From: a bacterium
Lineage (GTDB): Bacteria > Patescibacteriota > Doudnabacteria > UBA920
Assembly: GCA_016699995.1 (NCBI GenBank)
Contig: CP064996.1
Span: forward strand, 837,747-901,746
DNA length: 64,000 nucleotides
Reading direction: 5' to 3'
This document shows positions 1,708 through 30,292 of the stretch, piece by piece. The position numbers were made by a program, and so were the translations under genes. The number at the start of each line of letters is the position of its first letter. Positions within the stretch are counted from its first letter, which is position 1. Below the pieces are notes generated by a model. That model had not been told where the DNA came from, searched no databases, and saw only the letters and a list, made by a program, of their open reading frames with translations.

Positions 1708-1750
1708 AAGCTAATAAAATTTAATAACCAGTAGCTACTACTGGTTATAT

Positions 1751-1801: not shown

Positions 1802-2593
1802 CTATTTATTGGTCAAATAATTGGTCAAAGCTTGAACCACCGCAAAGGATACAACGACTATCACCAAACCGATTAAAGCGTTAACCAAGGTCTTACGGCC
1901 GCTCTTTGCCTGGTCTTCATTGCCGCGTGCTGTCATAAACAGATAACCGCCGTAAATGATCATTATCACCGCTACTATCCCAGCTAAAGATAATAAAGTA
2001 GAAATAACTTGGGTAGCCAGACCGCCTAATGTTCCTTTGCCGGCGACCCCTTCGGAGTTACCGAAAGGATTATCTGGAATACACAATGGGCCTTTGGATG
2101 TGAAACCGCTTGGACAATCGCCGGTTCCAGCTGTATTAGAGCTCTGAGGTTTAGTTCCGCCTGTATTGCCGGTTCCGGTTCCTGTATTCCCCGTCCCAGT
2201 GCCAGTTCCGGTTCCGGTTCCAGTGCTACCACCGGTAATGCTGTTTTTGTTAACGAGCTTAATGTCTTCGTAAGTACTTGGATCTGCCTCGTAAACACTA
2301 CAGTTGGTTTTACCTGTTCGGTCTACTGCATTAAAAATTCCAAAGTCCTGTTCCTTTGGCAAATAAGCTACACATACGCCCTGAAAAGTAGTCGGAACTT
2401 GAGACGGTGCAATCTCCTTAACATCTTTCGCTGTCGAGCACTTACCGGCGGAGTCTGGCCAGCTAACCGCGAATGTTTTGGTATTTAAACAAAACTTCGA
2501 CACATATTGTACCAGAGCCTCAGACCTGTGAGCAGGCACCGCACTGAAGATCAATGCAAAGATAGATACTAAAACCAAGCTGGCTAACTTCAT
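1802..2593 (-). CDS. secreted protein with C-terminal TrbC/VirB2-like pilin domain (paralog 1 of 7); Gly/Thr-rich linker
   Basis: ORF; N-terminal signal peptide MKLASLVLVSIFALIFSAVPA; GTGTGTG linker; C-terminal motif IIYGGYLFMTARGNEDQAKSGRKTLVNALIGLVIVVVSF shared by all seven paralogs; start moved to Met5 of the track ORF. Confidence 0.7.
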   Translation of the reverse strand: MKLASLVLVSIFALIFSAVPAHRSEALVQYVSKFCLNTKTFAVSWPDSAGKCSTAKDVKEIAPSQVPTTFQGVCVAYLPKEQDFGIFNAVDRTGKTNCSVYEADPSTYEDIKLVNKNSITGGSTGTGTGTGTGTGNTGTGTGNTGGTKPQSSNTAGTGDCPSGFTSKGPLCIPDNPFGNSEGVAGKGTLGGLATQVISTLLSLAGIVAVIMIIYGGYLFMTARGNEDQAKSGRKTLVNALIGLVIVVVSFAVVQALTNYLTNK

Positions 2594-2594
2594 A

Positions 2595-3014
2595 CTATCT
2601 CTCATCTATTAAGAATCTATAGGCTACTTGAACAATAACAAACGAAAGAACGACAATCGCTAACCCTATCAAGGCGTTCACCAAAGTGGTTCGTCCCTTC
2701 TTTGCCTGGGCCTCGTCACCTCGAGCGGTGATATAGTAGTATCCTCCAATGATTATAAAGAGTACAGAAATAATTGCCGCGAGATACAACGCATAATCGA
2801 TTATGGTCTTAGCTAAGCTCTGGGGAGTCGCGCCTTTGTCCACGACTGTCTCTGGAAAAACCTCTTTAATATCATTCAAGCCGTCCTGGACTCTGTTCCC
2901 CGAAGAGGAAGTAGGTGTAGCTGCCCGCTGTGCATCGGCAGCAGTGATTGGCATCCAGCCGAACACAACGACTGTTACCAAAGTAAGAAACATGTGAAGC
3001 AATACTTTTTTCAT
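2595..3014 (-). CDS. secreted protein with C-terminal TrbC/VirB2-like pilin domain (paralog 2 of 7)
   Basis: ORF; signal peptide MKKVLLHMFLTLVTVVVFG; C-terminal IIIGGYYYITARGDEAQAKKGRTTLVNALIGLAIVVLSF; start taken at internal Met (3014). Confidence 0.7.
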   Translation of the reverse strand: MKKVLLHMFLTLVTVVVFGWMPITAADAQRAATPTSSSGNRVQDGLNDIKEVFPETVVDKGATPQSLAKTIIDYALYLAAIISVLFIIIGGYYYITARGDEAQAKKGRTTLVNALIGLAIVVLSFVIVQVAYRFLIDER

Positions 3015-3120
3015 ATTGTTGTTTAAAATAATTCCGGAGGGAAAATCATATAATTTTGCCCCCGGAATTATCCCGCATATCAATTCAACCTAAAGGAAAA
3101 ATCTGAATGCGGGAAAAACT

Positions 3121-3624
3121 TTAGCTTCCAAAAATGCCACCGCCGCTGCTGTCGCCAGAAACGAAGCGGTAAACGATTTGAACAATAACGTAAGACAGTA
3201 CGATAATAACCACACCGATCAATGCATTGAAGATTGCGGTACGGCCAGCTTTAGCTCCTTCTTCATTACCACCGGCGAGAATGTATCGGAAACCACCGTA
3301 AATTAAGAAGATAACTGCCAAGATAAAGGCAATTGCTAACGCCCAGTTGATTACAGTCACAAAGATTTCTGCCAAACCGCCTTCATTACAGCGGATACCA
3401 GTTTCTTCTGGACAATCATCAACGAAATCATCTACTAATTGCGCATGACCTACTTGAGGGGCCATCATTAATAACGGCATCAAAGCAATACCGATAGCAG
3501 CAATTGCCTGAACAATTGTAGTTAAATTTAAGTTCTTTAATATTTGTTTCAAATTTCTCACCACCCTTCTGCTTGAGCTTTTAAACTCATATCGCAAAGT
3601 GCGAGTTACTGAGATTCTGGCCAA
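3121..3624 (-). CDS. secreted protein with C-terminal TrbC/VirB2-like pilin domain (paralog 3 of 7)
   Basis: ORF; hydrophobic N-terminal segment; C-terminal LIYGGFRYILAGGNEEGAKAGRTAIFNALIGVVIIVLSY; true start uncertain. Confidence 0.65.
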   Translation of the reverse strand: MARISVTRTLRYEFKSSSRRVVRNLKQILKNLNLTTIVQAIAAIGIALMPLLMMAPQVGHAQLVDDFVDDCPEETGIRCNEGGLAEIFVTVINWALAIAFILAVIFLIYGGFRYILAGGNEEGAKAGRTAIFNALIGVVIIVLSYVIVQIVYRFVSGDSSGGGIFGS

Positions 3625-3671
3625 TAAATCGGCTGGAATTCATTAACCTTATTGTACTATACAGATCGCGA

Positions 3672-4136
3672 TTAGAAAAGCTGATTGTCAACAATCAAAT
3701 TTACAACGATGGTAACTATGGCTGTCGCAATGATTGCCAAGGCCACGCCTCCCAACGTATACATCATCACAGTCTTAGCTTTCTTGATCTGCGCATCGTT
3801 GCCGCGGCCGGTCATATACAAATATCCGCCGTAGATCATGGCTAAAACTGCCCCGATACCGACTACAAAATAAAGCCAGTAAACGATCTTTTTGTAAACC
3901 GCACCTTCGTCGCAATACTTTGGTAGTTCCTTTAGACGGTCTCCGCCGAAACCAGTGCTATATTCATCAATCTGATTCTGCAAACCTTCGCACCCCCAGC
4001 TGTCTACATCATTGCCAGGAGCCGGCGTGGGTGCAGATTGAGCCAAAGCAGATTGGAACAGATTAACTTTCGACGCGCCAATAAAAGCAACAGCTCCGAT
4101 CAAAATTGTCAGTAATAACAAAAATTTTAGTTTCAT
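3672..4136 (-). CDS. secreted protein with C-terminal TrbC/VirB2-like pilin domain (paralog 4 of 7)
   Basis: ORF; signal peptide MKLKFLLLLTILIGAVAFIGA; C-terminal MIYGGYLYMTGRGNDAQIKKAKTVMMYTLGGVALAI. Confidence 0.7.
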   Translation of the reverse strand: MKLKFLLLLTILIGAVAFIGASKVNLFQSALAQSAPTPAPGNDVDSWGCEGLQNQIDEYSTGFGGDRLKELPKYCDEGAVYKKIVYWLYFVVGIGAVLAMIYGGYLYMTGRGNDAQIKKAKTVMMYTLGGVALAIIATAIVTIVVNLIVDNQLF

Positions 4137-4139
4137 ATA

Positions 4140-4994
4140 TTATCTTGCAATAACTCGTTCTATTATCGCCACAATACTAAATGACATTAAGCATACAATC
4201 AACCCGCCGATCGCCCACATCACTGCCTTCTTGCCGTTCGTTAAGCGAGTCTCATTGCCCGAAGACGTAACCATTTGGAAGCCCCCCCAAATAATCACTG
4301 CAACTGCTATCATCGCTGCAAGCATCAGTAAAATATTGATGATGCGAATAATCAACTCGGGCACCGAATCAAATTCCAATGGATTAGAAAATGTGCCAAG
4401 TACAGCATCAAAATCTCCGCCGATCACCTTAACAGAAGAGTCGACGTCAGCACCTCCCCCGCCGGTACCAGAACCGTCGTCATTACCATTGCCGTCTCCG
4501 CTGCCGCCGTCGTCATCATCACCGGTACCTCCACCCCCGCCGCCACCTTCTTGCGGACCTTTGCCGATTTTCAACTTTACAGTTCTTTCCTGATATACGC
4601 TAGAGAAGTCATTGGAACCCAAAGTGTTGTTAGTCTGAAATTTAATGGTATAGTTGCCATTGCCGATACCTAAATTATTTCGCAAGTAAACACTCTTTTC
4701 TGTAGAACCCTGGTTTAGAACGAAGTTATCTGTATTATTGCTCCAGGAATAGGTAAAGCGAGCATTCTTCCCACAAGGATGAAAACCTAAAGAGCTGGCA
4801 GGGACTTTAACATGAACCTGAACCTCGGTGCTTAAATCATCAACCCTTAAATCGATAGAGCCCGTAGGGGCATTAGGATGATAAAGCTTAAAGTCGGCCT
4901 GACAGTTGGATTGGGCAAATATCTTGGTTGGTACTAGCATAGCCGAACCAACATACAGCGCAGCGATAAAGGCAATAATAAATTTATTCAACAT
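4140..4994 (-). CDS. secreted protein with C-terminal TrbC/VirB2-like pilin domain (paralog 5 of 7); Gly/Asp-rich linker
   Basis: ORF; signal peptide; Gly/Asp-rich linker (GGGGGGGTGDDDDGGSGDGNGNDDGSG); C-terminal IIWGGFQMVTSSGNETRLTNGKKAVMWAIGGLIV. Confidence 0.7.
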   Translation of the reverse strand: MLNKFIIAFIAALYVGSAMLVPTKIFAQSNCQADFKLYHPNAPTGSIDLRVDDLSTEVQVHVKVPASSLGFHPCGKNARFTYSWSNNTDNFVLNQGSTEKSVYLRNNLGIGNGNYTIKFQTNNTLGSNDFSSVYQERTVKLKIGKGPQEGGGGGGGTGDDDDGGSGDGNGNDDGSGTGGGGADVDSSVKVIGGDFDAVLGTFSNPLEFDSVPELIIRIINILLMLAAMIAVAVIIWGGFQMVTSSGNETRLTNGKKAVMWAIGGLIVCLMSFSIVAIIERVIAR

Positions 4995-4997
4995 ATT

Positions 4998-5453
4998 TTA
5001 TAGTAAGGACTGAATGATATTGACCAAAGCAAAAGCACTCACAGCCACCACTAAGCCGATGACTGCCCAGGTCAAAGTAGCCTTTGCAGATTTGATCCTC
5101 GATTCATTACCCTGATTGAAGATCAGCATAACTCCTGCGTAGATAATGACTATAGTAGATACCATGGCAATTATCATTAGCAACCAATTGATAAGCTTCG
5201 CGACTAAATCAGAAACATCTCCGCTATTGGAAGGGTTTTTAATGCTTAAAGAACCTTCCCAGTCGACACCATCATAAGTGCGAGCAACATAGCCAGAACC
5301 TTCCTGAGGCTTGGTAGTGGAGGTAGCTGGAGGCTTTACAGTAGAAGTGGCGAGGTCCTTCGGCTTTGGCGGTTCGACCGCGAGCACTTGGACAGGTGCC
5401 AACAAATAAATACTGAAAGAAAGTAATATCAAAATTTTCTTAAGTACTCTCAT
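4998..5453 (-). CDS. secreted protein with C-terminal TrbC/VirB2-like pilin domain (paralog 6 of 7)
   Basis: ORF; signal peptide MRVLKKILILLSFSIYLLAPVQVLA; C-terminal IIYAGVMLIFNQGNESRIKSAKATLTWAVIGLVVAVSAF. Confidence 0.7.
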   Translation of the reverse strand: MRVLKKILILLSFSIYLLAPVQVLAVEPPKPKDLATSTVKPPATSTTKPQEGSGYVARTYDGVDWEGSLSIKNPSNSGDVSDLVAKLINWLLMIIAMVSTIVIIYAGVMLIFNQGNESRIKSAKATLTWAVIGLVVAVSAFALVNIIQSLL

Positions 5454-5457
5454 GATA

Positions 5458-6258
5458 TTAATCAGAATTAATATATTCTCTCGGATTACTGAGGATCAAG
5501 CCCCCATTGCGAATACCAATATTAAGCGAACCTGCAAGAAGGGAGTTAACCAAAACAAACGCAATTGCAACCAACACTAACCCACCCACTGCTCCTCCCA
5601 GCTTTCTTTTTGCTGCTGTGAGCTTAGATTGGTCGCCGCCGTTGAACTGAGAAATGATGATCTGAACCCCTGAGATAATAATAAATAAAACGGCAACCAA
5701 GCCCGCCATCGTAATAAGGTAATTGATGATAATTACCATTGCTCTAAACAGATGAGTGACATTGCATGGAGTATCTACAGTATTACCGCAAATTACAAAA
5801 CCCGACCGGCCGGATTCATCTACATCTTCTCCGGTGTCTTTATCTAAGTTTCCAGGCGGTGGCGTGCCTTCGCCTCCTTGAGGTTTATCCGGAGCCCGAT
5901 AATTATCTTTTATTGCCTTAATCACCGCGGCGCTTGCGCCGGCATCTGTTAAGGCCTTTTCGTCGGCGGAGGTCGGCTTAAAGTCGACTCCAGACTTGTT
6001 AATTTGCTTGATCAGTTCTGCTGCTGGCGGCTTCTTTTCTTTAACCATAGTCAGGACTTTTGACTTAGTCAAAGCCGTACCTGTGTAAGCCTTGCCGGAA
6101 GCTTCTTGAACTTTTGCACCGCCATCCTGCGCTTGAGCCAGCACGTCGCGCGCTGTTCCGGAAGAAATTATTAAAGCAAAAATTAAACACACCGCGGTTA
6201 ACCCCGCTAGCAGAAAAGGCCCGAAACGGCTCTTTAACTTATCATTAATGTACTTCAT
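5458..6258 (-). CDS. secreted protein with C-terminal TrbC/VirB2-like pilin domain (paralog 7 of 7)
   Basis: ORF; N-terminal TM/signal; C-terminal IIISGVQIIISQFNGGDQSKLTAAKRKLGGAVGGLVLVAIAFVLV. Confidence 0.65.
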   Translation of the reverse strand: MKYINDKLKSRFGPFLLAGLTAVCLIFALIISSGTARDVLAQAQDGGAKVQEASGKAYTGTALTKSKVLTMVKEKKPPAAELIKQINKSGVDFKPTSADEKALTDAGASAAVIKAIKDNYRAPDKPQGGEGTPPPGNLDKDTGEDVDESGRSGFVICGNTVDTPCNVTHLFRAMVIIINYLITMAGLVAVLFIIISGVQIIISQFNGGDQSKLTAAKRKLGGAVGGLVLVAIAFVLVNSLLAGSLNIGIRNGGLILSNPREYINSD

Positions 6259-7568
6259 TAAAATAACCTCCCTTGCACCAAGGCGGACGCCTGGCTCTGA
6301 GCTCGGCTTAAGCTGCTATTAACGCTTTGGTTTTTAAACAGAATATTATTTATAGCTTCTCCTATTAATTCATCAAACTTTTCTTCGCTCACTTTATAAA
6401 AAGATTTAGCAGTAAGGTTTGCATGGGCGAAGACACCGATGTCCAAATCCTGGGTTTGCAGTTCTATCAAATCGCGGCGGGAGGATGGCTGCTTATCTTT
6501 GGCGTAATAGGCATCCAAGGCCTGCTTGCTGGTTGCAAATTTTAAGAAGTCCCAAGCATCTGCACTATTTTTACTTTGCTTGCTGACTACTTCTCCAAAA
6601 TAGCTGGCAAAATTCACGTTGGGTTGAGATAGATCAAACTGTGGTACCGGTGCGACATCATAATTTAAGTTTGGAGCCTTTGCATCAATTTGAGACCTAG
6701 TATAACTATAGCCATACAAAAACGCTGCGCGACCATTGGCAAAAGCATCTACCGAATAATCACTTTCCGAATTCCAGGTATAGTTCTGGCTGGACGGATT
6801 GGCAAACGAAGTATAAAACTCCATAGCTTCCACACCCGGATTAACGCTACGTCCATTACGCTGGACACTAGACGCAAAGCGCGGCGTACGACCGTCATTG
6901 GACCAAGGAACAGTGCCAGACTGGAGCATTAACAGGTACACAATATCCACTCCCCGGTTAACATTGTCATGTGTCCCCATTGCTACACCGCTGCGGTCAA
7001 AGTAGCCCTGAGAATTTTGGCTAGAAATTTTTCTCGAATCACGCGCCAGTTCATCCCAGCTTTTGGGCGGGGTGGCAATACCGGCAGTCCCTAATATATC
7101 CTTGTTGTAGTACAAGGCCAGAGAATCAACCCACATAGCAGTGCCGTAAATTTTATCGGCGCGGATAAAATCTGTACTGACCACGTCAACAAAGCCATCT
7201 CTATACTCTTTCATCGTATAAAGCTTATCCGGCGCTGGGGTAACTTTATCTAAATATTCCGGCAGCCAAGTATTATTGATAGAAAAAATATCCGGACCGG
7301 ATCCGCTCGCTAATGCATTCAGAAGATCGCTTTCGTAGTTTTCGATGTTTTTCTTAGTGTACTCGATCGTAACATTCGGCTTAACTTTTTTGTAGGCCTG
7401 AATAAGTGTATTCATCTTGTCGCTGTCAACAAAAGGCTTCCAGATACGAAGCGTTACCTTGCCTGCCTTCTGATTGCCGCCGCCGCAGCCGGCAGAAACC
7501 AAAACTAAACAACCTATCACCAAGGCGAAGGTAAATTTTTTAAAAACAGAGTTTTGATTTTTTTTCAT
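6258..7568 (-). CDS. ABC transporter substrate-binding lipoprotein (extracellular solute-binding protein, family 1-like)
   Basis: ORF 436 aa; signal peptide with lipobox LVSAGC; general solute-binding-protein-like sequence. Confidence 0.7.
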   Translation of the reverse strand: MKKNQNSVFKKFTFALVIGCLVLVSAGCGGGNQKAGKVTLRIWKPFVDSDKMNTLIQAYKKVKPNVTIEYTKKNIENYESDLLNALASGSGPDIFSINNTWLPEYLDKVTPAPDKLYTMKEYRDGFVDVVSTDFIRADKIYGTAMWVDSLALYYNKDILGTAGIATPPKSWDELARDSRKISSQNSQGYFDRSGVAMGTHDNVNRGVDIVYLLMLQSGTVPWSNDGRTPRFASSVQRNGRSVNPGVEAMEFYTSFANPSSQNYTWNSESDYSVDAFANGRAAFLYGYSYTRSQIDAKAPNLNYDVAPVPQFDLSQPNVNFASYFGEVVSKQSKNSADAWDFLKFATSKQALDAYYAKDKQPSSRRDLIELQTQDLDIGVFAHANLTAKSFYKVSEEKFDELIGEAINNILFKNQSVNSSLSRAQSQASALVQGRLF

Positions 7569-8524: not shown

Positions 8525-10024
8525 CTAAATGGAATTATTTATACGATATTGTAAACTTTCTGCCAAATGGCTCGATTGAATATCTCTACTCTCCTCCAAA
8601 TCGGCAACCGTACGGGCAACCTTCAATAATCGGTTTATTGCCCGGCCAGATAAGTTGAACTGATCAGCTGCCTTTTGCAATAACTGTTCGCTGTCTGAAT
8701 CAAGTCTGCAAAACTTTTTGATCTCGTCGCCATTCATCTCGCTATTTGTTTTTATGCCCCCGAACCGACGTTGCTGAACACTCCAAGCTTTCTCGACCAA
8801 TCTTCTCATCTCTGCCGAAGTAATTTGGTTATCACTGATACTAAACTCTTCGTATTTTAACCGTGCAACTGTTAAATGCAGATCAATTCTATCCAACAAC
8901 GGACCAGAAATTTTTTTATTGTAACGGAGAACATCTACAACCCGGCAACTGCATACTAACTTTGCATCGCCATAATTTCCGCAATGACAAGGATTCTGAG
9001 CAGTAACCAAAATGAATTTGGCCGGAAAGGTTACAGTACTCCTCGCCCGCGTAATGGTAATACTTCCATCCTCCAACGGCTGGCGCAAAACTTCTAACGC
9101 ATTCCTATCAAATTCGGGCAGTTCGTCCAAAAACAAAACACCATTATGAGCCAAACTTATTTCGCCGGGCCGTGGTTTGGCTCCGCCTCCTATTAATGAC
9201 AGCATCGACGCAGTATGATGCGGCGATCGAAACGGACGGAAACGCATTCTATTGCTACTCTTGCCAGCCAAACTATGCAAATTTGCAGTTTCTATAACTT
9301 CCTCATCAGTAAGCTTAGGAAGTATCCCTGCTAGAGCCCTAGCAAGCATAGTTTTACCACTGCCCGGAGGGCCGACCATCTTGATGTTATGAAAACCGCT
9401 AGCGGCAATTAGCAAAGCTCGCTTAGCAATGCTTTGCCCGGCGATTTTTCCAAAGTCGATTTCTGACTCTAAACGAATTTCTTCTTCCTCATTTAAGCTC
9501 GGGGCGTGTAACTCTGCACCATGCACCAAATGATTTATAACTTCTTTTAAATTTTGAACAGCATATACTTTTACACCCTTAACCAAACAGGCTTCGTGAT
9601 AATTTTCTAAAGGAACGTAAACCTCGCTTAAAGATTGCTGCTTGGCAGCCAAAACCATGGAAAGCACTGCTGTACCTTTGCGTATCCGACCGTCTAGCGA
9701 TAGCTCGCCAATAAACATTTTACCCGATGGCTCAAAGACTATTATGCCGCTGGCCAGCAGTATGGATAAACATATAGGCAGATCAAAATGACTACCGACT
9801 TTTGGAATGTCCCCCGGAGCAAGGTTCACAGATATCCTAGTGGCTGGATAATCATAGCCGGAATTTTTTATTGCCGACCTTACTCTTTCCCGACTCTCTT
9901 GCACTACTGTGTCAAGCAGTCCCACTATGATAGTTGCCGGCAAACCGTTGCTGACGTCAGTTTCTATTTCCACCAGCTTCGCATAATACCCATCGGGAGT
10001 TGCAGTCAAAATTTTCTGAATCAT
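8525..10024 (-). CDS. comM: YifB/ComM family Mg-chelatase-like AAA+ ATPase
   Basis: 499 aa; Walker A GPPGSGKTMLARA; family-typical N-terminal and C-terminal regions. Confidence 0.9.
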   Translation of the reverse strand: MIQKILTATPDGYYAKLVEIETDVSNGLPATIIVGLLDTVVQESRERVRSAIKNSGYDYPATRISVNLAPGDIPKVGSHFDLPICLSILLASGIIVFEPSGKMFIGELSLDGRIRKGTAVLSMVLAAKQQSLSEVYVPLENYHEACLVKGVKVYAVQNLKEVINHLVHGAELHAPSLNEEEEIRLESEIDFGKIAGQSIAKRALLIAASGFHNIKMVGPPGSGKTMLARALAGILPKLTDEEVIETANLHSLAGKSSNRMRFRPFRSPHHTASMLSLIGGGAKPRPGEISLAHNGVLFLDELPEFDRNALEVLRQPLEDGSITITRARSTVTFPAKFILVTAQNPCHCGNYGDAKLVCSCRVVDVLRYNKKISGPLLDRIDLHLTVARLKYEEFSISDNQITSAEMRRLVEKAWSVQQRRFGGIKTNSEMNGDEIKKFCRLDSDSEQLLQKAADQFNLSGRAINRLLKVARTVADLEESRDIQSSHLAESLQYRINNSI

Positions 10025-10080
10025 AAAACCAGCATAACTGCTGGCTGCTCAAAGTCATATCAATTTTATAAAAGCATTTG

Positions 10081-10539
10081 TTAAATTTTTTCTGAATTTG
10101 TTTTCGAGACGACAACTAATATTGCTCCCAGGAAAATATAGATATCTGCCAAATTCAAAACTCCATTAAGGACAAAGATGTAATCTGTCACATAGCCAAA
10201 ATAAATTCGTTCGGCTAAGTTTGCCACTCCGCCGGAGATAATTAATCCGAAACCAAGTTTAGACAAGTTACTGAGCTTGTTCCAATAACGGATTAAATAA
10301 TAGGTCATAAACCCGAAGACCAAGAAGTACAAACTGTAAATTACTGCGAGAGGAATATTTATGCTGAACGCAAATTTTTCGTTATAAAAAATTTTCTTAT
10401 TGGAGTTTTTCACCAGTACTCTTACTACTTGTGTTAGAACGATAAACCCGATCGAGCTTATTAGCCATGAATAAAAACCGGGCGACGATTCACGCCTTCC
10501 GGTCAATTCAGAATTAGTTTGAGTAACTTCTTCGTTCAC
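10081..10539 (-). CDS. lspA: lipoprotein signal peptidase (signal peptidase II)
   Basis: 152 aa polytopic membrane protein; motifs GGVANLAERIYFGYVTDYIF and NLADIYIFLGAIL. Confidence 0.8.
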   Translation of the reverse strand: MNEEVTQTNSELTGRRESSPGFYSWLISSIGFIVLTQVVRVLVKNSNKKIFYNEKFAFSINIPLAVIYSLYFLVFGFMTYYLIRYWNKLSNLSKLGFGLIISGGVANLAERIYFGYVTDYIFVLNGVLNLADIYIFLGAILVVVSKTNSEKI

Positions 10540-10545
10540 GAAAAA

Positions 10546-10851
10546 TTAAAGTGCCTTGTCTGCCCACGGGATGGCACGCAAGCGTTCTTCAGAAATTTGA
10601 TTGCCTTCATCATCTGTGCCATAAGTACCATCTTCGATCTTCTGCAAAGCTTTGGCAATCTTTTCTAAGTCAGAAGTAATGCGCTCCGACATATCGCGGT
10701 TAACATCATCCAATTGGACTTCCGTAGCGTTTTCATCCAAGTCGTCGCCAATTTCGGAGTGGCCGCTCATGGCCGCTAAGTCGTTTTTTAAAGTTTCCTG
10801 CTCAGCCAATAGGCTAGCTTTCATTTCTGTAATAAAATCTTGAGATAACAT
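10546..10851 (-). CDS. DksA/TraR-family-like small protein lacking the zinc-finger cysteines
   Basis: 101 aa acidic coiled-coil protein; C-terminus resembles the DksA/TraR tail but with no Cys. Confidence 0.45.
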   Translation of the reverse strand: MLSQDFITEMKASLLAEQETLKNDLAAMSGHSEIGDDLDENATEVQLDDVNRDMSERITSDLEKIAKALQKIEDGTYGTDDEGNQISEERLRAIPWADKAL

Positions 10852-22532: not shown

Positions 22533-22929
22533 TTGGCGGTGTTTTCTGGACGAAGTTCGAACATTTTTTGAGCAAAACCCCCAATAAGGAAGCCAGCCCC
22601 GCCACTGCTCGGAAACCTCGCCACACCACAGAAAAATACTCTTTGCTCTTTTCATTTTGCGCGCGCCCGATTTCTTTTTCTTCTAATGAAAAGAGTATTT
22701 TTCTGCGGTGTTCTGCCTTCCAAGTATTCAGGCAGGTGGCGGGGCTGTCCTCAATTTGATTTCGAAAAGAAAAAGCGGAATTCCCCCCAAACCCCCCTTC
22801 CGCTTTTTCTTTTCTCAAACGGAACGGGAACGGAAGCAGGCGGGCAAAAATTCCTTCCCCCCAACCCCCTTCCTTTTTGCCCGCCTGCTTGGGCTTCGCC
22901 CCCAAAACTTTTCGGCGGGACGGCGGGAC
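22533..22929. repeat. IR1-L: 397-bp GC-rich structured repeat, inverted copy of 30380..30776
   Basis: Base-by-base comparison: reverse complement matches the 30380..30776 copy with about 3 mismatches; nested palindromes and C-tract loops. Confidence 0.9.
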
Positions 22930-25625
22930 TATTTAATATTAAGCTTTTCACCTCTTTTTTCAAATGCCTCTTTTCCGCCTTCAAGTTTTAGCAATTCCTC
23001 TCTGTTTTTTGTGTCCTCAATTGTCGTTTCAATAACTTCCGTTTGCCCCGATTCATTTTTCAAAATGAAAATTTTCTCTGCATCTCCGTTGATTACAAAA
23101 TTTGCGTTATGGGTGGCAAAAATGATTTGGCGATCTGATTTTTTCTCTTTCAACAAAGGCACAAGATAATTCGCAATCAACGAGCTATCAAGATGAGCCT
23201 CTGGCTCATCAATAATTAGCGGATAATTCCCAAACAAAAGTAAAATCACAACTACCGCCGTACATCTTTGTCCGAAAGACGCTTGTTCAACATCTCGATT
23301 GTCATATTTGACTTGGATTATTTTGTTTAGCTTCACATCGTACAAATGTTTATCCCTAATTGCCTGAAAGATTTGAAAATTTTTCTCTTCCTTAAAAACC
23401 TCATCAAGAAATTTGGTGTATTTTTTATCGCTCTTCTGGGATTGTTGGATAATTTTTCTAACATCGTCAAATGAGTTTTTGGAAAAAGTTTGCTCATTGC
23501 CCGTTATAAATTCGCACACTTCTTTGCCTCGTTCCGTATCGTGGTACTTTGTGAAAAAATAATTGTAAAACTCTTCTGCCAGAGCAACCCAAGCACCTTT
23601 TTCGTTGAAAGAATATTCGAGTGAAATTTGCTTGATATCTTTCCCTTGATTGTCTTCAAACTGTTTCTTCAATAAATCCTGCAAGGGTTTCAATATCTCG
23701 GTAATTTTTGTTTCGTAATTTTGTTTATTTGTGCTTAATCCAGCGACAACATTTTCGAGCGTTGCAAGCACTTTTGTTTTTGCCTCAATTTGAGCGGTTA
23801 AGCTCTTAATTTCGCTTTCCAAGTTCGTTATTTTTTGTGGAGCGGATTTGATCTGCTCAACGCTTTCGGGAGTATAACCAGCTTTCTCAATTAGTGTCTT
23901 GGCTTTAGCTTCCAATTCTGTCAGAGCTTTTTTGATCTCCGATTCTTTCTTTGCTTCCTCTGCAAACTTTTCTTCTTTCAATAATTCAACCGCTTCAGCA
24001 ATCTTGGCTACTGCAAGGTCATAGGCTTTTTCGTATTCAGTTTTTTCAACTTCTTCTTTTGATTCTTCAGATTCAGATTCTGGAATTAGATCAGACAGTG
24101 AATTTTTAAGATCAGATATATTTTCTTTCCAATCTTCTAACTCCTGCAACTCTTTTGATTTATCTGTAATTCCAGTAATAACCTCGTTATATTCTTTGCT
24201 CGATAATACTTTAACGCTACTTTCAAGCGTCCTTTTTTCTTTTTCTTTTGCAATTTTTTGATCCTCAAGAGTTTTCAAATCAGAAACGGCTTGAATAATT
24301 TGACCAAGTTTGCCTTTCAAGGATTCAATTTCTTCCTCGTATTCCTCTAAAATATTACCTGCGTGCGAATTAGCTCTGTCATAAATTGCTTGCGTAAATT
24401 TAGATTTATCCCGCGCAAAAGTTTCTATTTCGCTTTGAGCTAAAAATTCAAAAATTTCAGTTCCGCCAAAGGAAAAAATATTGTTGTCATTCGGATCAAA
24501 AGAGGGGCTTAAATTATTCCAAAACTTTTTTGGAGAATCGGGGTTGTTTGAATGCAATCCCAGAAAATTCAAAATAGTGCTTTTTCCTGATCCTCTACCA
24601 CCGATAAAACAATTAAAATATGGGCTTAAGTTATATGAGCCGTTATTCCCAGCAAAACAAAACTTATCTTCGCCAACTTTTGCGTCGGTAGGAATTTTTA
24701 GAGTAATTGTGTCAATCGTGTTTATCGGCTTTTTTGGTTTTTCCTCACCAATAAAAATTCTTGTTTCTGGCTCATAAACAATTTGCTTCAATCCCTCAAA
24801 TGTTGGCTCGGCTTTAATCCAGCAATATTTTTCAATCGGTTTTGAATCTTTATCCTTTAGCTTTCCAATTGGATAATCTTGAGCGTGTGAATCGCTTCCT
24901 TTTATACAAGCCTTTTTTCGTAAAAACCAACCGCGAAACTGATCTTGTGTAAATTTTACAGTTCCGTCAGTTTTCAAATCAGATTTCCAAAGGAAAAAAT
25001 CAATTTGTTTTTGTCGTGAAGAACCTAAAACATCAGCAGTTCTTATGTAATTACTCTTTATCCACTCATCTGAATTCGGATCAATTTCATCAATACCGCC
25101 GTATTCATCATACGGAAGCCACAATAAAAATTTATCCTTAAATTTTTCGTCCTGGTTTAATTCAGTTAGCAAAGAACCGAGGGAGATTTTCTTATCTTTC
25201 AGTTTGGCTTTGTCATCATAATCGCCACTGATTTTTGTTCCGTTGCTTTTCAACCCCTTAATTAAATTTTCAATGTCAGCAATTTGTATTTGGTCATCAA
25301 AAATAATATGAAAATTGAAATGAGTTGCCCCGTTTGTTGTGGTGTTTTTGTTTTGTACGCTTTCAGTCATTCGAAATTCAACAACGGGCAGGATTTTCTT
25401 ACCGCCAACATCTAAATCGCCCTTGTCGATTTTTTCTTTGATTTGTTTGTATCCTGCTACTGAAAAATAATCATTTATCCCAATAACATCACAATCAGCG
25501 TTTTTCAGTTGAGTTTCAAATTGATCCCAAGTACCAGAAAAGCCGTCAGAAGCAGGGCTATGCACATGCAAATCCCATTTTCTCCATTCGGAGCCGATAT
25601 TTGGTTTTGGAATCTTACTGCTCAT
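22929..25625 (-). CDS. PHP-domain phosphoesterase fused to Rad50/SMC-like ABC ATPase with long coiled-coil insert
   Basis: 898 aa; N-terminal PHP-like WDLHVHSPASDG..VIGINDY; Walker A GGRGSGKST; about 400 aa coiled coil; C-terminal signature ASFGQR, Walker B LIIDEPEAHLD, H-loop IFATHNANF. Confidence 0.8.
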   Translation of the reverse strand: MSSKIPKPNIGSEWRKWDLHVHSPASDGFSGTWDQFETQLKNADCDVIGINDYFSVAGYKQIKEKIDKGDLDVGGKKILPVVEFRMTESVQNKNTTTNGATHFNFHIIFDDQIQIADIENLIKGLKSNGTKISGDYDDKAKLKDKKISLGSLLTELNQDEKFKDKFLLWLPYDEYGGIDEIDPNSDEWIKSNYIRTADVLGSSRQKQIDFFLWKSDLKTDGTVKFTQDQFRGWFLRKKACIKGSDSHAQDYPIGKLKDKDSKPIEKYCWIKAEPTFEGLKQIVYEPETRIFIGEEKPKKPINTIDTITLKIPTDAKVGEDKFCFAGNNGSYNLSPYFNCFIGGRGSGKSTILNFLGLHSNNPDSPKKFWNNLSPSFDPNDNNIFSFGGTEIFEFLAQSEIETFARDKSKFTQAIYDRANSHAGNILEEYEEEIESLKGKLGQIIQAVSDLKTLEDQKIAKEKEKRTLESSVKVLSSKEYNEVITGITDKSKELQELEDWKENISDLKNSLSDLIPESESEESKEEVEKTEYEKAYDLAVAKIAEAVELLKEEKFAEEAKKESEIKKALTELEAKAKTLIEKAGYTPESVEQIKSAPQKITNLESEIKSLTAQIEAKTKVLATLENVVAGLSTNKQNYETKITEILKPLQDLLKKQFEDNQGKDIKQISLEYSFNEKGAWVALAEEFYNYFFTKYHDTERGKEVCEFITGNEQTFSKNSFDDVRKIIQQSQKSDKKYTKFLDEVFKEEKNFQIFQAIRDKHLYDVKLNKIIQVKYDNRDVEQASFGQRCTAVVVILLLFGNYPLIIDEPEAHLDSSLIANYLVPLLKEKKSDRQIIFATHNANFVINGDAEKIFILKNESGQTEVIETTIEDTKNREELLKLEGGKEAFEKRGEKLNIK

Positions 25626-25627
25626 AT

Positions 25628-27463
25628 TTATTCTGAAAAAATTTTCACTTTTATATCTTCCTTGAGTTTATGTATTGAATTTTCATATTCCTTTATTTGA
25701 TTTTCTCTTTCTTCAATCTTTTTCATTATCTTTTTTTGTACTTCCATTGGAGGTAACGGAAAACTAAAATTTTGGATTGCACCTAATTTGATATACGCCA
25801 TAGTATTTCCCAGTTTTTGTTGTAGAACAGAATCTTTCAAAGTGTTCTTTAACACGAAATATAAGTATTTAGGTTCAATATTAACAAAATCAGTTAGAAC
25901 ATATGTTCTTTGGTATGCTTCAAATTTACCCTTAAAATAAGTTACTGTGCCAACATCTCCGTTGCCTGCTATAAGTATCGCTTCTGCATCAAATGAAAAA
26001 ACATCACTATAAGTATGATTTTGGGCGCAAGTAAAAAAAGGGTACTTTCCATTTGGATTGCCTTCATTAACATTTTTCTTTCCCGTTCTTATTTTGCAAA
26101 TGTCGCCAAGTTTAACGCTTTCCCACTTACTTTTTCCTCGGTGGTCAGTTTGAAAATATGTTTTGTAATTTAGACTAACTTCACTGTGGTTTAATATCTC
26201 GTCTTTACTTACCCAAAAAACTTTTTTGCTTGGATTCTTTTTGCCATTTTTCCAATCAGTGATTACTTGGAGGGCTTCAGGCAAATCATTTTTTTCTATT
26301 TTTTGTCGTTTTGCACCGAGATCATAGCCGTCTGCTTCAACATTAATAAACAAAATATCTTTAACTTTTTTTGAAATTGAATTGTCAAAAAAAAGTACAC
26401 TTGTTTTAATCGTTGCGGAATATGGATTAAAAATTCCTACTGGCAAAGAAACGATCGCATATAACCCATCTTCTACCATTTTTTTTCTTAACGATTGATT
26501 AGCATTGCTTGTTTGAAACATTATTCCCTCAGGGACTACAATTCCACCTCGACCACTGATATTTAAATGTTCTATGATGTAATCAACAAACAAAACTTCT
26601 GCACGATTTGCCTGTATAGAAAATCGCTTGTGTGGCACTACTCCTCCACGAGGTGTCATAAAAGGAGGATTTGCCATTATCACATCAAAAGTTTCGTCCC
26701 AACGCTTTTCACTGGTCAGCGAATCATACTCGTGAATTTTTGGCTCTGGGAATCCGTGCAGATACATATTCACAAGCGCCAATTTCACCATATCAGGCGA
26801 AATATCATAGCCTGCCAAATTATTCATCAATTTTAATTTTTCGTCTGGCGTGAGCGGTTTTTCTTTGTTGGTTTTCAAAATGTGCTTGTAGGCAGAAATC
26901 AAAAATCCAGCCGTTCCGCAAGCGGGATCAAGAATTGTTTCGTTCTTTTTTGGATCAACAACTTCAACAATAAAATCAATAATGTGGCGAGGCGTGCGGA
27001 ATTGTCCCGCGTCGCCTTGGCTTCCGAGAATAGAAAGCAAATATTCAAAAGCATTGCCTAAATTTTCGCTGTGTTCGTAATTAAATTCGTTGATCTCTTT
27101 GAGGAATAGCGAAAGCGTGCGAGGGTCGTTGTATGGCAAAAACGCGCCTTTGAAAATATCACGGAACAATTGCGGAATATGCGGATTTTTCGACATATTC
27201 GTAATTGCTTGAACATACAAATCAAGGCGTTCTTGCCCCGAAAGTTTATTGTCCAAAAGTTTCGTCCAAGCGTATTGCGAAAATCCGTTGGCGAAAAATT
27301 TTGCCTCTCCGCCGAGTTCTTCAGATTCCTTGTCCATATCGTCCATAAACTTATAGACAAGAGCGGTCGTGATTTGTTCAACTTGAGCTTTTGGGTCTGG
27401 CACTTTACCGACAAGAATTTGTCGGGCAGAGTCTAGTTTTCGTTTTGTAGTTTGATCAAGCAT
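25628..27463 (-). CDS. hsdM: N6-adenine DNA methyltransferase (HsdM-like) fused to a single target-recognition domain
   Basis: 611 aa; AdoMet motif DPACGTAGFL, catalytic NPPF; C-terminal HsdS-like TRD plus coiled-coil tail. Confidence 0.85.
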   Translation of the reverse strand: MLDQTTKRKLDSARQILVGKVPDPKAQVEQITTALVYKFMDDMDKESEELGGEAKFFANGFSQYAWTKLLDNKLSGQERLDLYVQAITNMSKNPHIPQLFRDIFKGAFLPYNDPRTLSLFLKEINEFNYEHSENLGNAFEYLLSILGSQGDAGQFRTPRHIIDFIVEVVDPKKNETILDPACGTAGFLISAYKHILKTNKEKPLTPDEKLKLMNNLAGYDISPDMVKLALVNMYLHGFPEPKIHEYDSLTSEKRWDETFDVIMANPPFMTPRGGVVPHKRFSIQANRAEVLFVDYIIEHLNISGRGGIVVPEGIMFQTSNANQSLRKKMVEDGLYAIVSLPVGIFNPYSATIKTSVLFFDNSISKKVKDILFINVEADGYDLGAKRQKIEKNDLPEALQVITDWKNGKKNPSKKVFWVSKDEILNHSEVSLNYKTYFQTDHRGKSKWESVKLGDICKIRTGKKNVNEGNPNGKYPFFTCAQNHTYSDVFSFDAEAILIAGNGDVGTVTYFKGKFEAYQRTYVLTDFVNIEPKYLYFVLKNTLKDSVLQQKLGNTMAYIKLGAIQNFSFPLPPMEVQKKIMKKIEERENQIKEYENSIHKLKEDIKVKIFSE

Positions 27464-27473
27464 AATTTTTTGG

Positions 27474-29990
27474 TTACCTCATATAAACATTAACGGGAAC
27501 ATAGTCTTTCACATATTCAGGGACAGTTTCCCGCCAGCCGTTTAATTCCTTAAATTCCGACATTGTAAATCCAGCGTACACATTCAATTCCGCAAATTGT
27601 TTTTTGTTGATAATCTCGCGAAATTTTTCGTCTGTAACATACGCTTTCAGATAATTTTTGATATGCGGAACATATTTGCTTTCGGGCTTGTAGATTGAGA
27701 TAAACTTTTCGCATTCTTCTTCCAGTTTTTCGTCTTTGGATTTGAAAACATCAATCAAGCCGAAAGCTCTTTCCAAAAATTCACGCCAAGAAATACGGCG
27801 ATCAAGATTTTCGCTCTTGCGGATTTTTTCAAGATTCAGGAATAATTGCGGTTTGTCTTCGTATTTGTCGCGCATAATCTGCACGGCTTTGTCCCATTGC
27901 TCATTTTCCACGGCAGATTTTACTTCCGTGTCTTTTTGCAATTCTTCACGGGCTTTTTCAAAAAGTTTGCGATCAACTTTCATTCCCTCGATTCCGACAG
28001 GCGTTTCGGTAAGGGATTTTACTTTGTCGGGATTAAAAACTTCTATTTCATCAATATCAACGCCGACAGGTCCCTCTCCGCCAGTTCCTTTTTGTTTGAT
28101 TGGTAATTGCAAAATCTCGTCATAATCAAACTTTTCTTCAAAGTATTCGCAGTTTGCGAAGAAATCGAAAAATTTGAAATGATCTTTTGGCTTTTTGTGT
28201 TTCTCGCCATATTCGTCGGTATATTCAAAAGTGAATTTTCTTGTGCCTCGTCCTTTGATCTGAATAAAATCAGTCGGCGAAAAGATTGGGCGCATAAGCG
28301 CAAGATTCAAAATATCTTGGCAATCATAACCAGTCGTCATCATTCCGACAGTTACGCAAATTCTCGTTTTGCTGGATTTGTAGTTTTCCAAAAACTTGGT
28401 GTGTCCGTTTAGGTTGTTGTTGGCAAAATTGATTGTGAATTGCTGGCTGTCCGCAATATTTGAGGTGATTTGCACGGCAAAATCGGAATTGTATTTGTCG
28501 GGCCAAAGTTGGCTCGCCATTTGGTTGAGCGTTTGCGTTATTTTGGAAGCGTGCTTTTGACTGACGCAAAAGACAATAGTTTTGCCGATTTCACCGCTTA
28601 TCGGGTCTTTAAGAGAATTTTCAATGAGTGTCTGGCAAAAGACGCGATTTGTTTTTTCGGAAAAGAATTTCTTTTCAAAATCCTTTTGGAAAAATGTTTC
28701 TTCACTTTCTGTGCCATTCTCATCTTCAACCATAACCGCATAGCCCTTTTCCGATAGCAATTCGGTAGTGATGTCGGTTCGCGCGTCTGAAACGATAGGG
28801 TTGATCAAAAATCCTTCCTTTACGCCGTCAAGCAAACTGAAACGGAAAGTCGGCTCGCCATTTTTACAGCCAAAAGTCGTATAAGTGTCCAAGAGTTGCC
28901 GTCTTTCCCAAGCTCGTGGGTCTTTTTGTGATAATTTTTGCGGATCAACATTTTTCAAATAATCTTTCGGTGTTGCGGTTAAGCCCAATTTGTAGCCGAT
29001 AAAATATTCAAAAACTGCTCGCGAGTTTCCGCCTATTGCTCGGTGTGATTCATCGGCGATAATCAAATCAAAATCAGTCGGCGAGAAAAGTTTTTTATAT
29101 TTATCTTGCGCCGAAAGACTTTGAACTGTTGAAATGACAATTTCCGCTTTTTTCCAGTCGTCGCGGTTTTGCTTGTAAATAACAGAAGAAAAGTCATTGC
29201 TCAAATAGCGGACAAAGTTTTTATGGGCTTGGTCTTCCAATTCTAAACGATCAACCAAAAACAGAATTCTTTTAGCGTTGCCTGTTCGTAAAAACAGTTT
29301 GATAACGGCGGCGGAAATTAGAGTTTTTCCTGTGCCTGTCGCCATTTCAAAAAGAAAGCGATCATTTCCAGCTTCGGCGGACTTTTGCAAGGCGTGAATT
29401 GCTTTGAGTTGATACGGGCGCAAAATTCGCAAATTTTCGTCCCAAAGATATTGTTCACGAGTATCTTCTTTCTGATAACGAGGATCGTCTTTGAAATTTG
29501 GATTTTGCGTGAGGGCGATATAATCATCATTGACTTCCTCGTCTGCTAAACGCTGATTGTTGGGCTTAAAATCCTGCCTGTGCTTCAAAGATTCTTGCGT
29601 TGGAAATTCTGTGATAATTTCAGGATCGCCTCGTTCCAAATCCCAAAAATAATGAAGGTTGCCGTTTGAGAGAATTACAAAACGGGCGTTTTCAGTGTGA
29701 GCGTATTTTCTGGCTTGTTCTTTTCCGTCCAGTGGGTTTTTGTCTTCTTTTTTGGCTTCCAGAATAACGAGCGGGAAACCTTTTTCATCGAGCAATAAAA
29801 AATCAATAAAGCCGTTTTTTGTGGATTCAAAATCTTCACCAAAAGCGTCAATGTCTTTTTGGGTAAGTTTTACATTCGGTTCAAGCGAAATGTTTGCTTG
29901 TCCTTTTTCATTATCAAAAAATCGCCAGCCTGCTTGTTCAAGCAGTTTGTTTATTTTTATTCGCGCTTTTGCTTCTTTAGTATTTGCCAT
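27474..29990 (-). CDS. hsdR: restriction endonuclease R subunit (HsdR-like: PD-(D/E)xK nuclease + SF2 helicase)
   Basis: 838 aa; N-terminal nuclease FIDFLLLDEKGFPLVILEAKK; helicase motif I EMATGTGKT, motif II LIIADESHR. Confidence 0.85.
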   Translation of the reverse strand: MANTKEAKARIKINKLLEQAGWRFFDNEKGQANISLEPNVKLTQKDIDAFGEDFESTKNGFIDFLLLDEKGFPLVILEAKKEDKNPLDGKEQARKYAHTENARFVILSNGNLHYFWDLERGDPEIITEFPTQESLKHRQDFKPNNQRLADEEVNDDYIALTQNPNFKDDPRYQKEDTREQYLWDENLRILRPYQLKAIHALQKSAEAGNDRFLFEMATGTGKTLISAAVIKLFLRTGNAKRILFLVDRLELEDQAHKNFVRYLSNDFSSVIYKQNRDDWKKAEIVISTVQSLSAQDKYKKLFSPTDFDLIIADESHRAIGGNSRAVFEYFIGYKLGLTATPKDYLKNVDPQKLSQKDPRAWERRQLLDTYTTFGCKNGEPTFRFSLLDGVKEGFLINPIVSDARTDITTELLSEKGYAVMVEDENGTESEETFFQKDFEKKFFSEKTNRVFCQTLIENSLKDPISGEIGKTIVFCVSQKHASKITQTLNQMASQLWPDKYNSDFAVQITSNIADSQQFTINFANNNLNGHTKFLENYKSSKTRICVTVGMMTTGYDCQDILNLALMRPIFSPTDFIQIKGRGTRKFTFEYTDEYGEKHKKPKDHFKFFDFFANCEYFEEKFDYDEILQLPIKQKGTGGEGPVGVDIDEIEVFNPDKVKSLTETPVGIEGMKVDRKLFEKAREELQKDTEVKSAVENEQWDKAVQIMRDKYEDKPQLFLNLEKIRKSENLDRRISWREFLERAFGLIDVFKSKDEKLEEECEKFISIYKPESKYVPHIKNYLKAYVTDEKFREIINKKQFAELNVYAGFTMSEFKELNGWRETVPEYVKDYVPVNVYMR

Positions 29991-29994
29991 AGTT

Positions 29995-30204
29995 TTATTT
30001 CATTAAATCATCAAGGGAAACGCCGAGGGCGTCCGCGATTTTTTTGACTGTATCAATGGTGGGGTTGGGAGTAGAGCCAGCTTCAATCTTGGCGATTGTA
30101 TGAAAAGCCAAATCCGCCTTTTTTGAAAGCTGATCTTGCGAAATGCCGAGCTTGTTTCGGTATTTCTTTATATTGTCGCCAATTGTGGATTTTTCGTTTG
30201 ACAT
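29995..30204 (-). CDS. XRE-family HTH regulator (candidate controller protein of the restriction operon)
   Basis: 69 aa; HTH LGISQDQLSKKADLAFHTIAKIE; first gene of the tightly packed operon. Confidence 0.8.
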   Translation of the reverse strand: MSNEKSTIGDNIKKYRNKLGISQDQLSKKADLAFHTIAKIEAGSTPNPTIDTVKKIADALGVSLDDLMK

Positions 30205-30263
30205 AATCGTATAGTTTTACTATTATAGTTGTATAGTATTAAAAACATCACTGATTTATAGTT

Positions 30264-30292
30264 AGTATATGGAATTTTTATCAATTAGTCAA
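30264..30292 (-). promoter_or_regulatory. sigma70-like promoter candidate for the controller-hsdR-hsdM-PHP/ABC operon (TTGACT, 17-nt spacer, TATACT)
   Basis: Hexamers on minus strand about 60 nt upstream of HTH start; leader contains ACTATA direct/inverted repeats. Confidence 0.35.

Follow-up and report, generated by a model that had tools for sequence, protein, structure and literature searches.

A position-conserved array of seven VirB2-like pilin genes in a patescibacterial chromosome

Seven PF18895 genes in tandem

The 64-kb stretch of contig CP064996.1 analyzed here (64,000 nucleotides; the window) carries on its minus strand, at positions 1802-6258, a run of seven adjacent open reading frames (ORFs), which we named pil1 to pil7 in transcription order (Table 1). 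As a preliminary description of this DNA had it, each encodes a protein with a signal peptide and a conserved C-terminal domain of two helices, a point on which the ORFs and a profile search agree. The mechanical ORF calls of pil5 (3121-3624), pil6 (2595-3083), and pil7 (1802-2605) begin too early. For pil5, a better start is the TTG at 3552, which is preceded by a strong Shine-Dalgarno (SD) sequence and yields a protein of 143 residues that agrees with IPM19_04480 at NCBI (99% identity), while pil6 and pil7 are better started at the ATG codons at 3014 and 2593, both supported by homologues or orthologs. The pil3 protein is 100% identical to IPM19_04490. With the revised starts, five junctions, counting that between the upstream solute-binding protein (SBP) gene and pil1 (TAATG), measure -1 to +4 nt, and pil5 is bracketed by longer spacers of ~119 nt (pil4-pil5) and ~106 nt (pil5-pil6). 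The spacing is therefore not uniformly 1-50 nt, as it had first been described.

A hidden Markov model (HMM) of the ~80 C-terminal residues shared by the seven proteins (the C-domain), scanned against the six-frame translation of the window, picks exactly pil1-pil7, with E values of 1e-25 to 5e-35, the next match having an E value of 0.22. All seven score 85-115 bits against this local profile (84.9 for pil1, 102.6 for pil4). Within the array, the C-domains of the paralogs are 23-54% identical and form two looser subgroups, pil5-6-7 (41-54%) and pil1-2-3 (31-40%), the C-domain of pil6 being 54% identical to that of pil7 and 46% identical to that of pil5.

As for the family, profile searches bear out the proposal that the C-terminal motif is that of pilins of type IV secretion systems (T4SS). 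Pfam PF18895 (T4SS_pilin) matches all seven C-termini with E values of 3e-9 to 1e-4, and five exceed the gathering cut-off of 26.6 bits (pil2 37.4, pil7 37.3, pil5 36.2, pil3 35.2, and pil6 33.5). The other two, pil4 (24.3 bits, E 3.4e-5) and pil1 (22.8 bits, E 9.9e-5), lie just under it and match the same region of the profile. PF04956 (TrbC/VirB2; cut-off 27.9 bits) is passed by pil2 alone (29.4 bits, E 9.6e-7); pil7 (18.4 bits) and pil6 (15.2 bits) match the same profile region below threshold (E 0.0025-0.025), these three being the proteins for which a score is reported. Several homologues bear PF18895 and PF04956 together. The top NCBIfam match for six of the seven proteins is NF045849, an equivalog model with a cut-off of 40 bits, under which pil7 (39.9) and pil2 (39.0) fall marginally. 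Nothing relevant came out of a sequence profile search of the PDB, which returned a single designed protein (E 0.17), and an hhalign comparison with five annotated Agrobacterium-type VirB2 proteins, taken from plasmid records via tblastn, was not significant (probability 1.3%). Structural matches are generic helical hairpins only. Membership of PF18895 is established, and the Pfam cross-hits suggest membership of the wider VirB2/TrbC superfamily.

Every protein begins with a hydrophobic leader, which in five of the seven carries a site of the AxA↓Q type, and ends in two hydrophobic helices of membrane-spanning length (Kyte-Doolittle hydropathy 2.1-2.8) joined by a short loop, G-N/D-E...K.G-R/K, with a net charge of 0 to +3. 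The ectodomains that precede the helices span ~30 to 180 residues and contain zero, two, or six Cys, always an even number; Pfam finds no domain in any of them, nor in those of ten ectodomain-bearing relatives. An AlphaFold2 (AF2) model of pil7 shows an N-domain with a predicted local distance difference test (pLDDT) score of ~90, a disordered linker (125-157), and helices at 189-221 and 226-262. In the corresponding model of pil3, the ectodomain has 9 strands (pLDDT 60-78), the linker scores below 50, and the helices span 211-243 and 248-283. Of the six Cys in pil7, four are in the N-domain and two in the membrane-proximal mini-hairpin, and they are kept in ten full-length orthologs that are 41-65% identical. 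The linkers of these orthologs vary greatly in length and composition (G/T-, N/T-, or P-rich), and that of the window is encoded by a hexanucleotide tandem repeat at 2169-2221, ~8 copies of (CCGGTT)n on the plus strand, which gives Gly-Thr and is the sole slippage-prone tract in the locus. This variability suggests slippage-driven length change. As for the pil3 ectodomain, an exhaustive search found ~5 pilin-sized relatives and, over many short stretches, giant repetitive surface proteins (SprB repeat, Ig_7, HYR, TPS domain), which we read as a weak, adhesin-like hint and not as homology.

Table 1. The pil genes and the features next to or between them
Feature	Position	Strand	Description
pil1	5458..6258	-	266 aa; long leader, variable ectodomain, Cys pair before helix 1, pilin domain and conserved C-terminal tail
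pil2	4998..5453	-	151 aa; short P/T-rich ectodomain in the source genome
pil3	4140..4994	-	284 aa; all-beta ectodomain (~28-150), Gly/Asp-rich disordered linker (146-196), pilin domain
pil4	3672..4136	-	154 aa; short form, Cys pair before helix 1
pil5	3121..3552	-	143 aa; shortest mature form, most conserved member; candidate major subunit
pil6	2595..3014	-	139 aa; short form without Cys
pil7	1802..2593	-	263 aa; four-Cys beta-rich ectodomain, (Gly-Thr)n linker, CPxGFxxKGPLC mini-hairpin, pilin domain
pil4-pil5 spacer	3553..3671	-	-10-like box TAGTACAAT (3651-3659), 5' leader, strong SD AGAAGGGTGGTGA, pil5 TTG start
Tandem RNA hairpins, pil5-pil6	3029..3114	-	Hairpin 1 3071-3114; hairpin 2 3029-3070, then UUAUUUUAA
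SBP_bac_1 solute-binding lipoprotein gene	6258..7568	-	Pfam PF01547, 1.5e-29; lipobox LVSAG↓C
Terminator-like palindrome 3' of pil7	1724..1748	-	11-bp stem and T-rich tail; overlaps tRNA-Leu promoter-like site

Positional orthology, ectodomain exchange, and pil5

A related locus was retrieved from the genome collection through the SBP protein, the alignment of the paralogous C-domains being too poorly conserved to serve as a query. In all, the comparison covers ten syntenic copies from ~8 other organisms (L002-L010 and a JGI locus without DNA), with L004 and L006 being near-duplicates of L003 and L005. Their common gene order is RecA, DnaQ-like, x, LspA, ComM, GalU, SBP, array, FtsH, x, RNase III, SMC, and S16, where x is a further gene. 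Identity to the window ranges across the copies from 99% down to 55% for pil5, and from 81 to 88% for SBP where measured. The array is fully covered in seven copies, five of which have seven pilin genes. L003 has six called pilin genes, the sixth call beginning inside pil5 (at 9472; the alternative start at 9574 was used for orthology), and L008 has eight owing to an additional pil7-like copy. The arrays of L006 and L010 are cut by the contig end.

Five genomes were compared, and in these every paralog has an ortholog at its own position. Comparison of four genomes shows that C-domains at the same position in different genomes are on average 60.5% identical vs 31% for different positions within a genome, and in 80 of 84 cases a C-domain has its best match in another genome at its own position. 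Positional orthologs share 58-76% C-domain identity for pil1, 44-61% for pil4, and 63-90% for pil5, a protein with relatives in >120 clusters at no less than 55% identity; the N-terminal region of pil1, by contrast, ranges from 52 to 195 aa in length. The duplications therefore predate the compared lineages. Moreover, sequence comparison gives no sign of concerted evolution and every member is kept, which argues for seven distinct roles. The array is thus, as judged from these alignments, a fixed, old, and non-redundant set and not a recent amplification or an antigenic-variation cassette. Between the window and L002, the number of nonsynonymous substitutions per site (dN) is lowest for pil5 (0.10), followed by SBP (0.15), GalU (0.23), pil6 (0.30), pil4 (0.38), pil2 (0.41), pil1 (0.43), pil7 (0.44), and pil3 (0.67). 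Synonymous sites are saturated in every gene but pil5 (proportion of synonymous differences, pS, 0.69-0.89), so that dN alone is usable and the dN/dS ratio (dS, synonymous substitutions per site) of the paralog set is not.

The ectodomains of pil1-3 have had a different history. In L010, the SBP protein of which is 88% identical to that of the window, the gene in position 2 has the beta-domain of the window's pil3 as its ectodomain (66% identity) joined to a C-domain of the pil2 type (77% identity to pil2 vs 37% to pil3), and at position 3 the ectodomain of L010 has just 29% identity to that of the window. A helical ectodomain that the window lacks is common to positions 1 and 3 of L002 (52% identity). 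This pattern indicates that pil1-3 have had their ectodomains replaced or swapped, both among paralogs and from genome to genome. An N-terminal region that is hypervariable, as first described for all seven genes, is accordingly found in pil1-pil3 but not in pil5, which is 82% identical to its L002 ortholog over the whole length, nor in pil7, where a six-Cys architecture is conserved and the linker alone varies. Long DNA repeats are absent from the locus (the best is 71% identical over 107 nt), as are flanking inverted repeats, silent cassettes, and any invertible segment or promoter.

Several features set pil5 apart. Directly 3' of the pil4 stop, a box of the TAGTAnAAT type is found in seven of eight genomes, L008 having TTGTAAAAT; an SD sequence, GAARGGYGGTGA, is kept before pil5 in 8 genomes; and the sequence around box and SD diverges, unlike the two motifs themselves. 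L009 has ATG as the start codon, in the same position as the TTG of the window. The 9-mer of the pil5 -10-like box also precedes tRNA-Leu. When TAGTANAAT was considered as a genome-wide promoter motif, there were 6 matches vs 2.5 expected, with 5 of 100 shuffles reaching 6, an enrichment that is suggestive only. On the other side of the gene, the pil5-pil6 spacer is predicted to fold with a minimum free energy (MFE) of -39.9 kcal/mol (z -5.7) in the window. Such a fold is seen in all eight genomes (window, L002, L003, L005, and L007-L010), with z scores between -3.8 and -6.5 and no equally good fold among 200 shuffles, and in seven of the eight spacers it forms two adjacent hairpins. Hairpin 2 shows compensatory changes in 7 of 20 pairs, and 91.9% of the cells pair vs 33-63% with the partners slid. 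Rfam has no family for these hairpins, which are probably a terminator, an attenuator, or a 3'-end/mRNA stabilizer.

Finally, the codon bias of pil5 is the strongest of the 22 genes tested, with an effective number of codons (ENC) of 42.0 and a codon adaptation index (CAI) of 0.783; for ribosomal protein S1 these values are 43.2 and 0.804, and for the other pil genes 51-60 and 0.61-0.73. Its dN of 0.05-0.10 lies below that of SBP, and it is the sole gene with a clearly unsaturated dS against both relatives. Together, these features suggest that pil5 is likely to be an abundant core or major subunit.

Genomic context

The stop codon of the SBP gene overlaps the start of pil1, which implies translational coupling, and in each of the syntenic genomes examined this orphan SBP gene is the array's conserved upstream neighbor. 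It has no accompanying gene for an ABC permease or ATPase. The tRNA-Leu promoter-like site that the terminator-like palindrome overlaps reads TTGAAA-16-TATAAT (1778-1751). The window is otherwise housekeeping chromosome, with FtsH (cut by the window start), tRNA-Leu, the array, the SBP lipoprotein, GalU-like, ComM, LspA, and DnaQ-like, and further RecA, RodZ, FtsK, Hsp20, IF-2, S1, GyrA, TyrRS, and others. In keeping with the preliminary description, which had seen no other T4SS components, a scan of the ORFs of at least 120 aa found no VirB4, VirB6, or VirD4 in the window. That description had also placed the genes in a pilin-like family abundant in the candidate phyla radiation (CPR), and the organism is indeed a CPR bacterium, a Saccharibacterium by its closest SBP match in the genome collection (81% identity), a locus labeled "uncultured Candidatus Saccharibacteria bacterium." An origin in a mobile element was considered and rejected, there being no PHROG hits, no phage match, one weak plasmid hit to a hypothetical protein, and a housekeeping context.

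Other parts of the window hold features of their own. A stretch of low GC content at 22929-32631 (0.34-0.38) is probably an integrated defense island. It encodes an AAA_21/AbiEii-like ATPase (22929-25625) and a type I restriction-modification (R-M) system (HsdM-HsdS fusion 25628-27463, HsdR 27474-29990). Next to these, the 3' end of a large serine recombinase gene (31018-32631) overlaps tRNA-Ser(CGA), which is on the opposite strand. At 45163-45448 on the plus strand, a group I intron (Rfam RF00028 at 45185-45417, 56.9 bits vs a gathering threshold of 50) apparently splits tRNA-Phe(GAA) in its anticodon loop, and ARAGORN recognizes tRNA-Phe in the joined flanks. The split gene immediately follows tRNA-Val(UAC) and precedes a terminator-like hairpin and an HTH_23 ORF (45525-46214). 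ARAGORN also calls a tRNA at 51942-52015 (+), with no assigned identity, a four-base anticodon (cgtc), and no Rfam tRNA match at the gathering threshold. At 59776-59852 (+) there is a tRNA-Ile with anticodon UAU (tat), which would read AUA directly and not via a lysidine-modified CAU tRNA.

Possible assembly and comparison with known arrays

What might the seven proteins do? By analogy with related systems, we lean, if by a narrow measure of confidence, towards a fixed set of seven non-redundant VirB2-like (PF18895) proteins that form a heteromeric pilus-like structure assembled by a T4SS, with pil5 as its core. Each protein would be exported by the Sec pathway and its leader cleaved, after which the two-helix hairpin would hold it in the membrane with the basic loop in the cytoplasm and the N-terminal ectodomain facing outward. 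Extraction and assembly would fall to a T4SS like the MPF-FATA-type system of Saccharibacteria, as in VirB2/TrbC/TraA pilins and by analogy with the essential pilin array of Southlakia epibionticum, and this T4SS would have to lie elsewhere in the genome. The link to a T4SS is drawn because PF18895 arrays adjoin VirB4, TraC-like, PrgI, and VirB6 genes in L016, L017, and S. epibionticum ML1. The product may be heteromeric, a tube or a pilus-like structure on the cell surface where it meets the host. In it, pil5, as an abundant core subunit with its own expression unit, would make the body of the tube, and pil4 and pil6 would be short accessory subunits. The ectodomains of pil1, pil2, pil3, and pil7, on flexible low-complexity linkers, may decorate the structure or form its cap, making contact with the host, and ectodomain exchange in pil1-3 over evolution would retune host specificity while leaving the assembly domain untouched. 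Host-range variation, which had been proposed at the outset, would hold in this evolutionary form, as exchange between genomes, and not as a stock of interchangeable subunits.

Several points weigh against an assembly of this kind. A helical lattice of the VirB2 type would be sterically hard to build if every copy of a subunit bore an ectodomain of 100-200 aa. No T4SS core gene is present in the 64-kb window, 58 kb of which lie on one side of the array, or within 10 kb of it in the syntenic relatives inspected (L003, L005, L007, L008, L009, and the JGI contig), and what points to coupling of the array to a T4SS is family analogy. The support for pil5 as the major subunit is indirect, coming from the codon bias of a 143-codon gene and from conserved motifs. 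A T4SS pilus has yet to be demonstrated in a Patescibacterium, a recent review (2025) calling it an "intriguing possibility" (PMC12857230). Pilus formation by the array proteins is likewise an inference from analogy.

Conjugative F-like pili are ~8.7 nm wide. In the wastewater Saccharibacterium M. amalyticus, cryo-electron tomography (cryoET) has shown a tube or "lance" 8.6-9.0 nm wide and 60-70 nm long with a barbed tip, which extends into the host from the epibiont's inner membrane and whose composition is unassigned (PMC11880426). The seven genes could conceivably be the parts list of a lance of this type, a doubtful idea that we put forward tentatively. In such a structure, pil5 would polymerize to form the tube, making it a VirB2-type pilus of a monoderm; pil1, pil3, and pil7 would form the barbed tip or recognize the host; the exchange of pil1-3 ectodomains would set host range; and the array would specify a heteromeric organelle of fixed composition, powered by a distant T4SS.

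The proteins may instead be anchored in the membrane to display diverse ectodomains, such as adhesins or binding modules, on the cell surface, independently of any T4SS and with no pilus, perhaps together with the co-transcribed SBP lipoprotein. The array does lie away from T4SS genes and is tightly or translationally coupled to the SBP gene in every syntenic genome, the large ectodomains sit on flexible linkers, and such an arrangement would sit well with generic hairpins as the structural matches and with a phylum in which no pilus of this type has been shown. Nevertheless, we regard display as rather unlikely, since three short members (mature length 106-122 aa) have nearly no ectodomain and yet one of them, pil5, is the most conserved and most codon-biased of all. 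The Pfam and NCBIfam relatives are moreover conjugative pilin families, the same family occurs inside T4SS clusters elsewhere, where it is essential, and the SBP gene has no ABC permease or ATPase genes by its side.

We give less credence to interchangeable filament subunits that would serve antigenic variation, phage evasion, or a change of host range, an explanation that the preliminary description favored and that has a published counterpart in the analogy with Bartonella and Anaplasma (Quinonero-Coronel 2025). The divergence of the paralogs (23-54% in the C-domain), the ectodomains of pil1-3 that are replaced or swapped between close relatives, and the in-frame repeat of the pil7 linker, which could slip, would all suit it. 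A repertoire of alternatives is nonetheless hard to reconcile with strict positional orthology, in which seven genes are kept in five of seven fully covered copies and pil5 remains 55-99% identical, or with tight packing and translational coupling, which speak for one operon and not for individual switching. The locus also lacks long repeats, silent cassettes, and an invertible promoter, and the nearest recombinase is 25 kb off, in the R-M island. Antigenic variation by alternative subunits, as first proposed, is therefore not upheld. That the proteins are Sec-exported effector or toxin subunits secreted by a T4SS in the manner of the pertussis toxin subunits of the ptx/ptl locus, as was read for TM7x (McLean 2020), seems very improbable. 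While all seven have signal peptides and saccharibacterial arrays beside T4SS genes were first termed a "Sec secreted array" (PMC7427843), two helices of membrane-spanning length per member imply integral membrane proteins and not soluble cargo, the matches are to pilin families and to no toxin family, and the reported identity to Ptx S1 is only 11% (McLean 2020, PMC7427843).

The favored reading, a fixed set of VirB2-like subunits, can be compared with what has been published. TM7x and other Saccharibacteria have an array of 4-6 small proteins with Sec signals between T4SS genes (McLean 2020, PMC7427843), and in S. epibionticum ML1 six PF18895 genes (SEML1_0014-0019) beside VirB6 are essential for epibiotic growth (Wang 2023, PMC10633639). 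Few gene sets have been shown to be essential for such growth of a cultured Saccharibacterium; pilin arrays associated with a T4SS are among them, and their role has been termed completely unknown (PMC11665869, PMC12857230). A survey of Patescibacteria listed 441 VirB2 arrays, each of 2-11 genes, from 383 assemblies, with a mean identity of 25% and a maximum of 54% (Quinonero-Coronel 2025, PMC12102498). It defined an array as at least two PF18895/PF04956 genes in tandem or one non-pilin gene apart in a patescibacterial genome, found arrays in or beside a T4SS cluster in ML1, TM7x, and 1135 of 1948 assemblies with pilin genes, and proposed host-range versatility by analogy with Bartonella and Anaplasma (PMC12102498). 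The present locus belongs to the same family (PF18895, sometimes PF04956), and its seven contiguous genes agree with that definition and with the range of 2-11. It shares the class Saccharimonadia, as assigned from the closest SBP match, and an equally low paralog identity (25-35% to pil7 over the full length, 23-54% in the C-domain).

Among the genomes that we inspected, two other Saccharibacteria (L016 and L017) have VirB4/P-loop_TraG, TraC-like, PrgI, and VirB6/TrbL_3 genes and, in divergent orientation, 6-8 PF18895 genes with Hsp20 after them. These arrays likewise mix short members with long ones that bear a Gly/Asn linker, and one protein of the L017 array (P0021, 278 aa, at 10001-10837) contains two tandem domains of the PF18895 type. 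Whereas the arrays of ML1, TM7x, L016, and L017 lie beside VirB6/PrgI/VirB4 and are followed by Hsp20, the array of the window lies between SBP and tRNA-Leu/FtsH. There is no one-to-one orthology between pil1-7 and the members of T4SS-linked arrays, with bit scores of 28-59 to all positions.

More distant systems are instructive as well. The TrbC/VirB2/TraA conjugative pilins of diderm T4SS (PF04956), of which the T-pilus and F-pilus are made, have the same leader, two hydrophobic helices, and short basic loop, and the "PAAAQ" of a VirB2 alignment, which we take to be the VirB2 processing site, agrees with the A-x-A↓Q context of the array leaders. The array differs from them in its monoderm setting, in having seven paralogs vs one major pilin, in ectodomains of up to ~160-180 aa, and in the absence of T4SS linkage. 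The match to Mbov_0395/MMCAP2_0565 (NF045849), the pilin-like conjugal transfer protein of Mycoplasma integrative and conjugative elements (ICEs), spans the whole 80-residue profile, with scores under the cut-off of 40. It belongs to a wall-less/monoderm system of the MPF-FATA type, which agrees with the VirB4 phylogeny published for Patescibacteria, and is a single gene within an ICE vs a chromosomal array here. The VirB2 expansions of Bartonella and Anaplasma are likewise divergent tandem genes of the VirB2 type in a host-dependent bacterium, and their exposed parts vary. They have been read as repertoires for variation or immune evasion, whereas the paralogs of the window are ancient, position-orthologous, and retained in the syntenic genomes that were compared.

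If the link to the lance were true, a pilus-like T4SS structure would be identified for the first time in a monoderm bacterium. In the lineage studied here, the array and the T4SS core are genetically uncoupled, and co-regulation cannot be assumed. VirB2-like pilin arrays are already known in Patescibacteria, and the locus is a further example and not a new kind of system. It does provide handles: a conserved position-orthologous set, normally of seven genes and not a variable amplification; a member, pil5, with the hallmarks of an abundant structural subunit; and three exchangeable ectodomains as candidate determinants of host specificity. We found neither the positional orthology, nor the ectodomain swapping, nor a separately regulated member in the published accounts that we consulted on patescibacterial VirB2-like arrays, to which the present one adds the first two and a candidate for the third.

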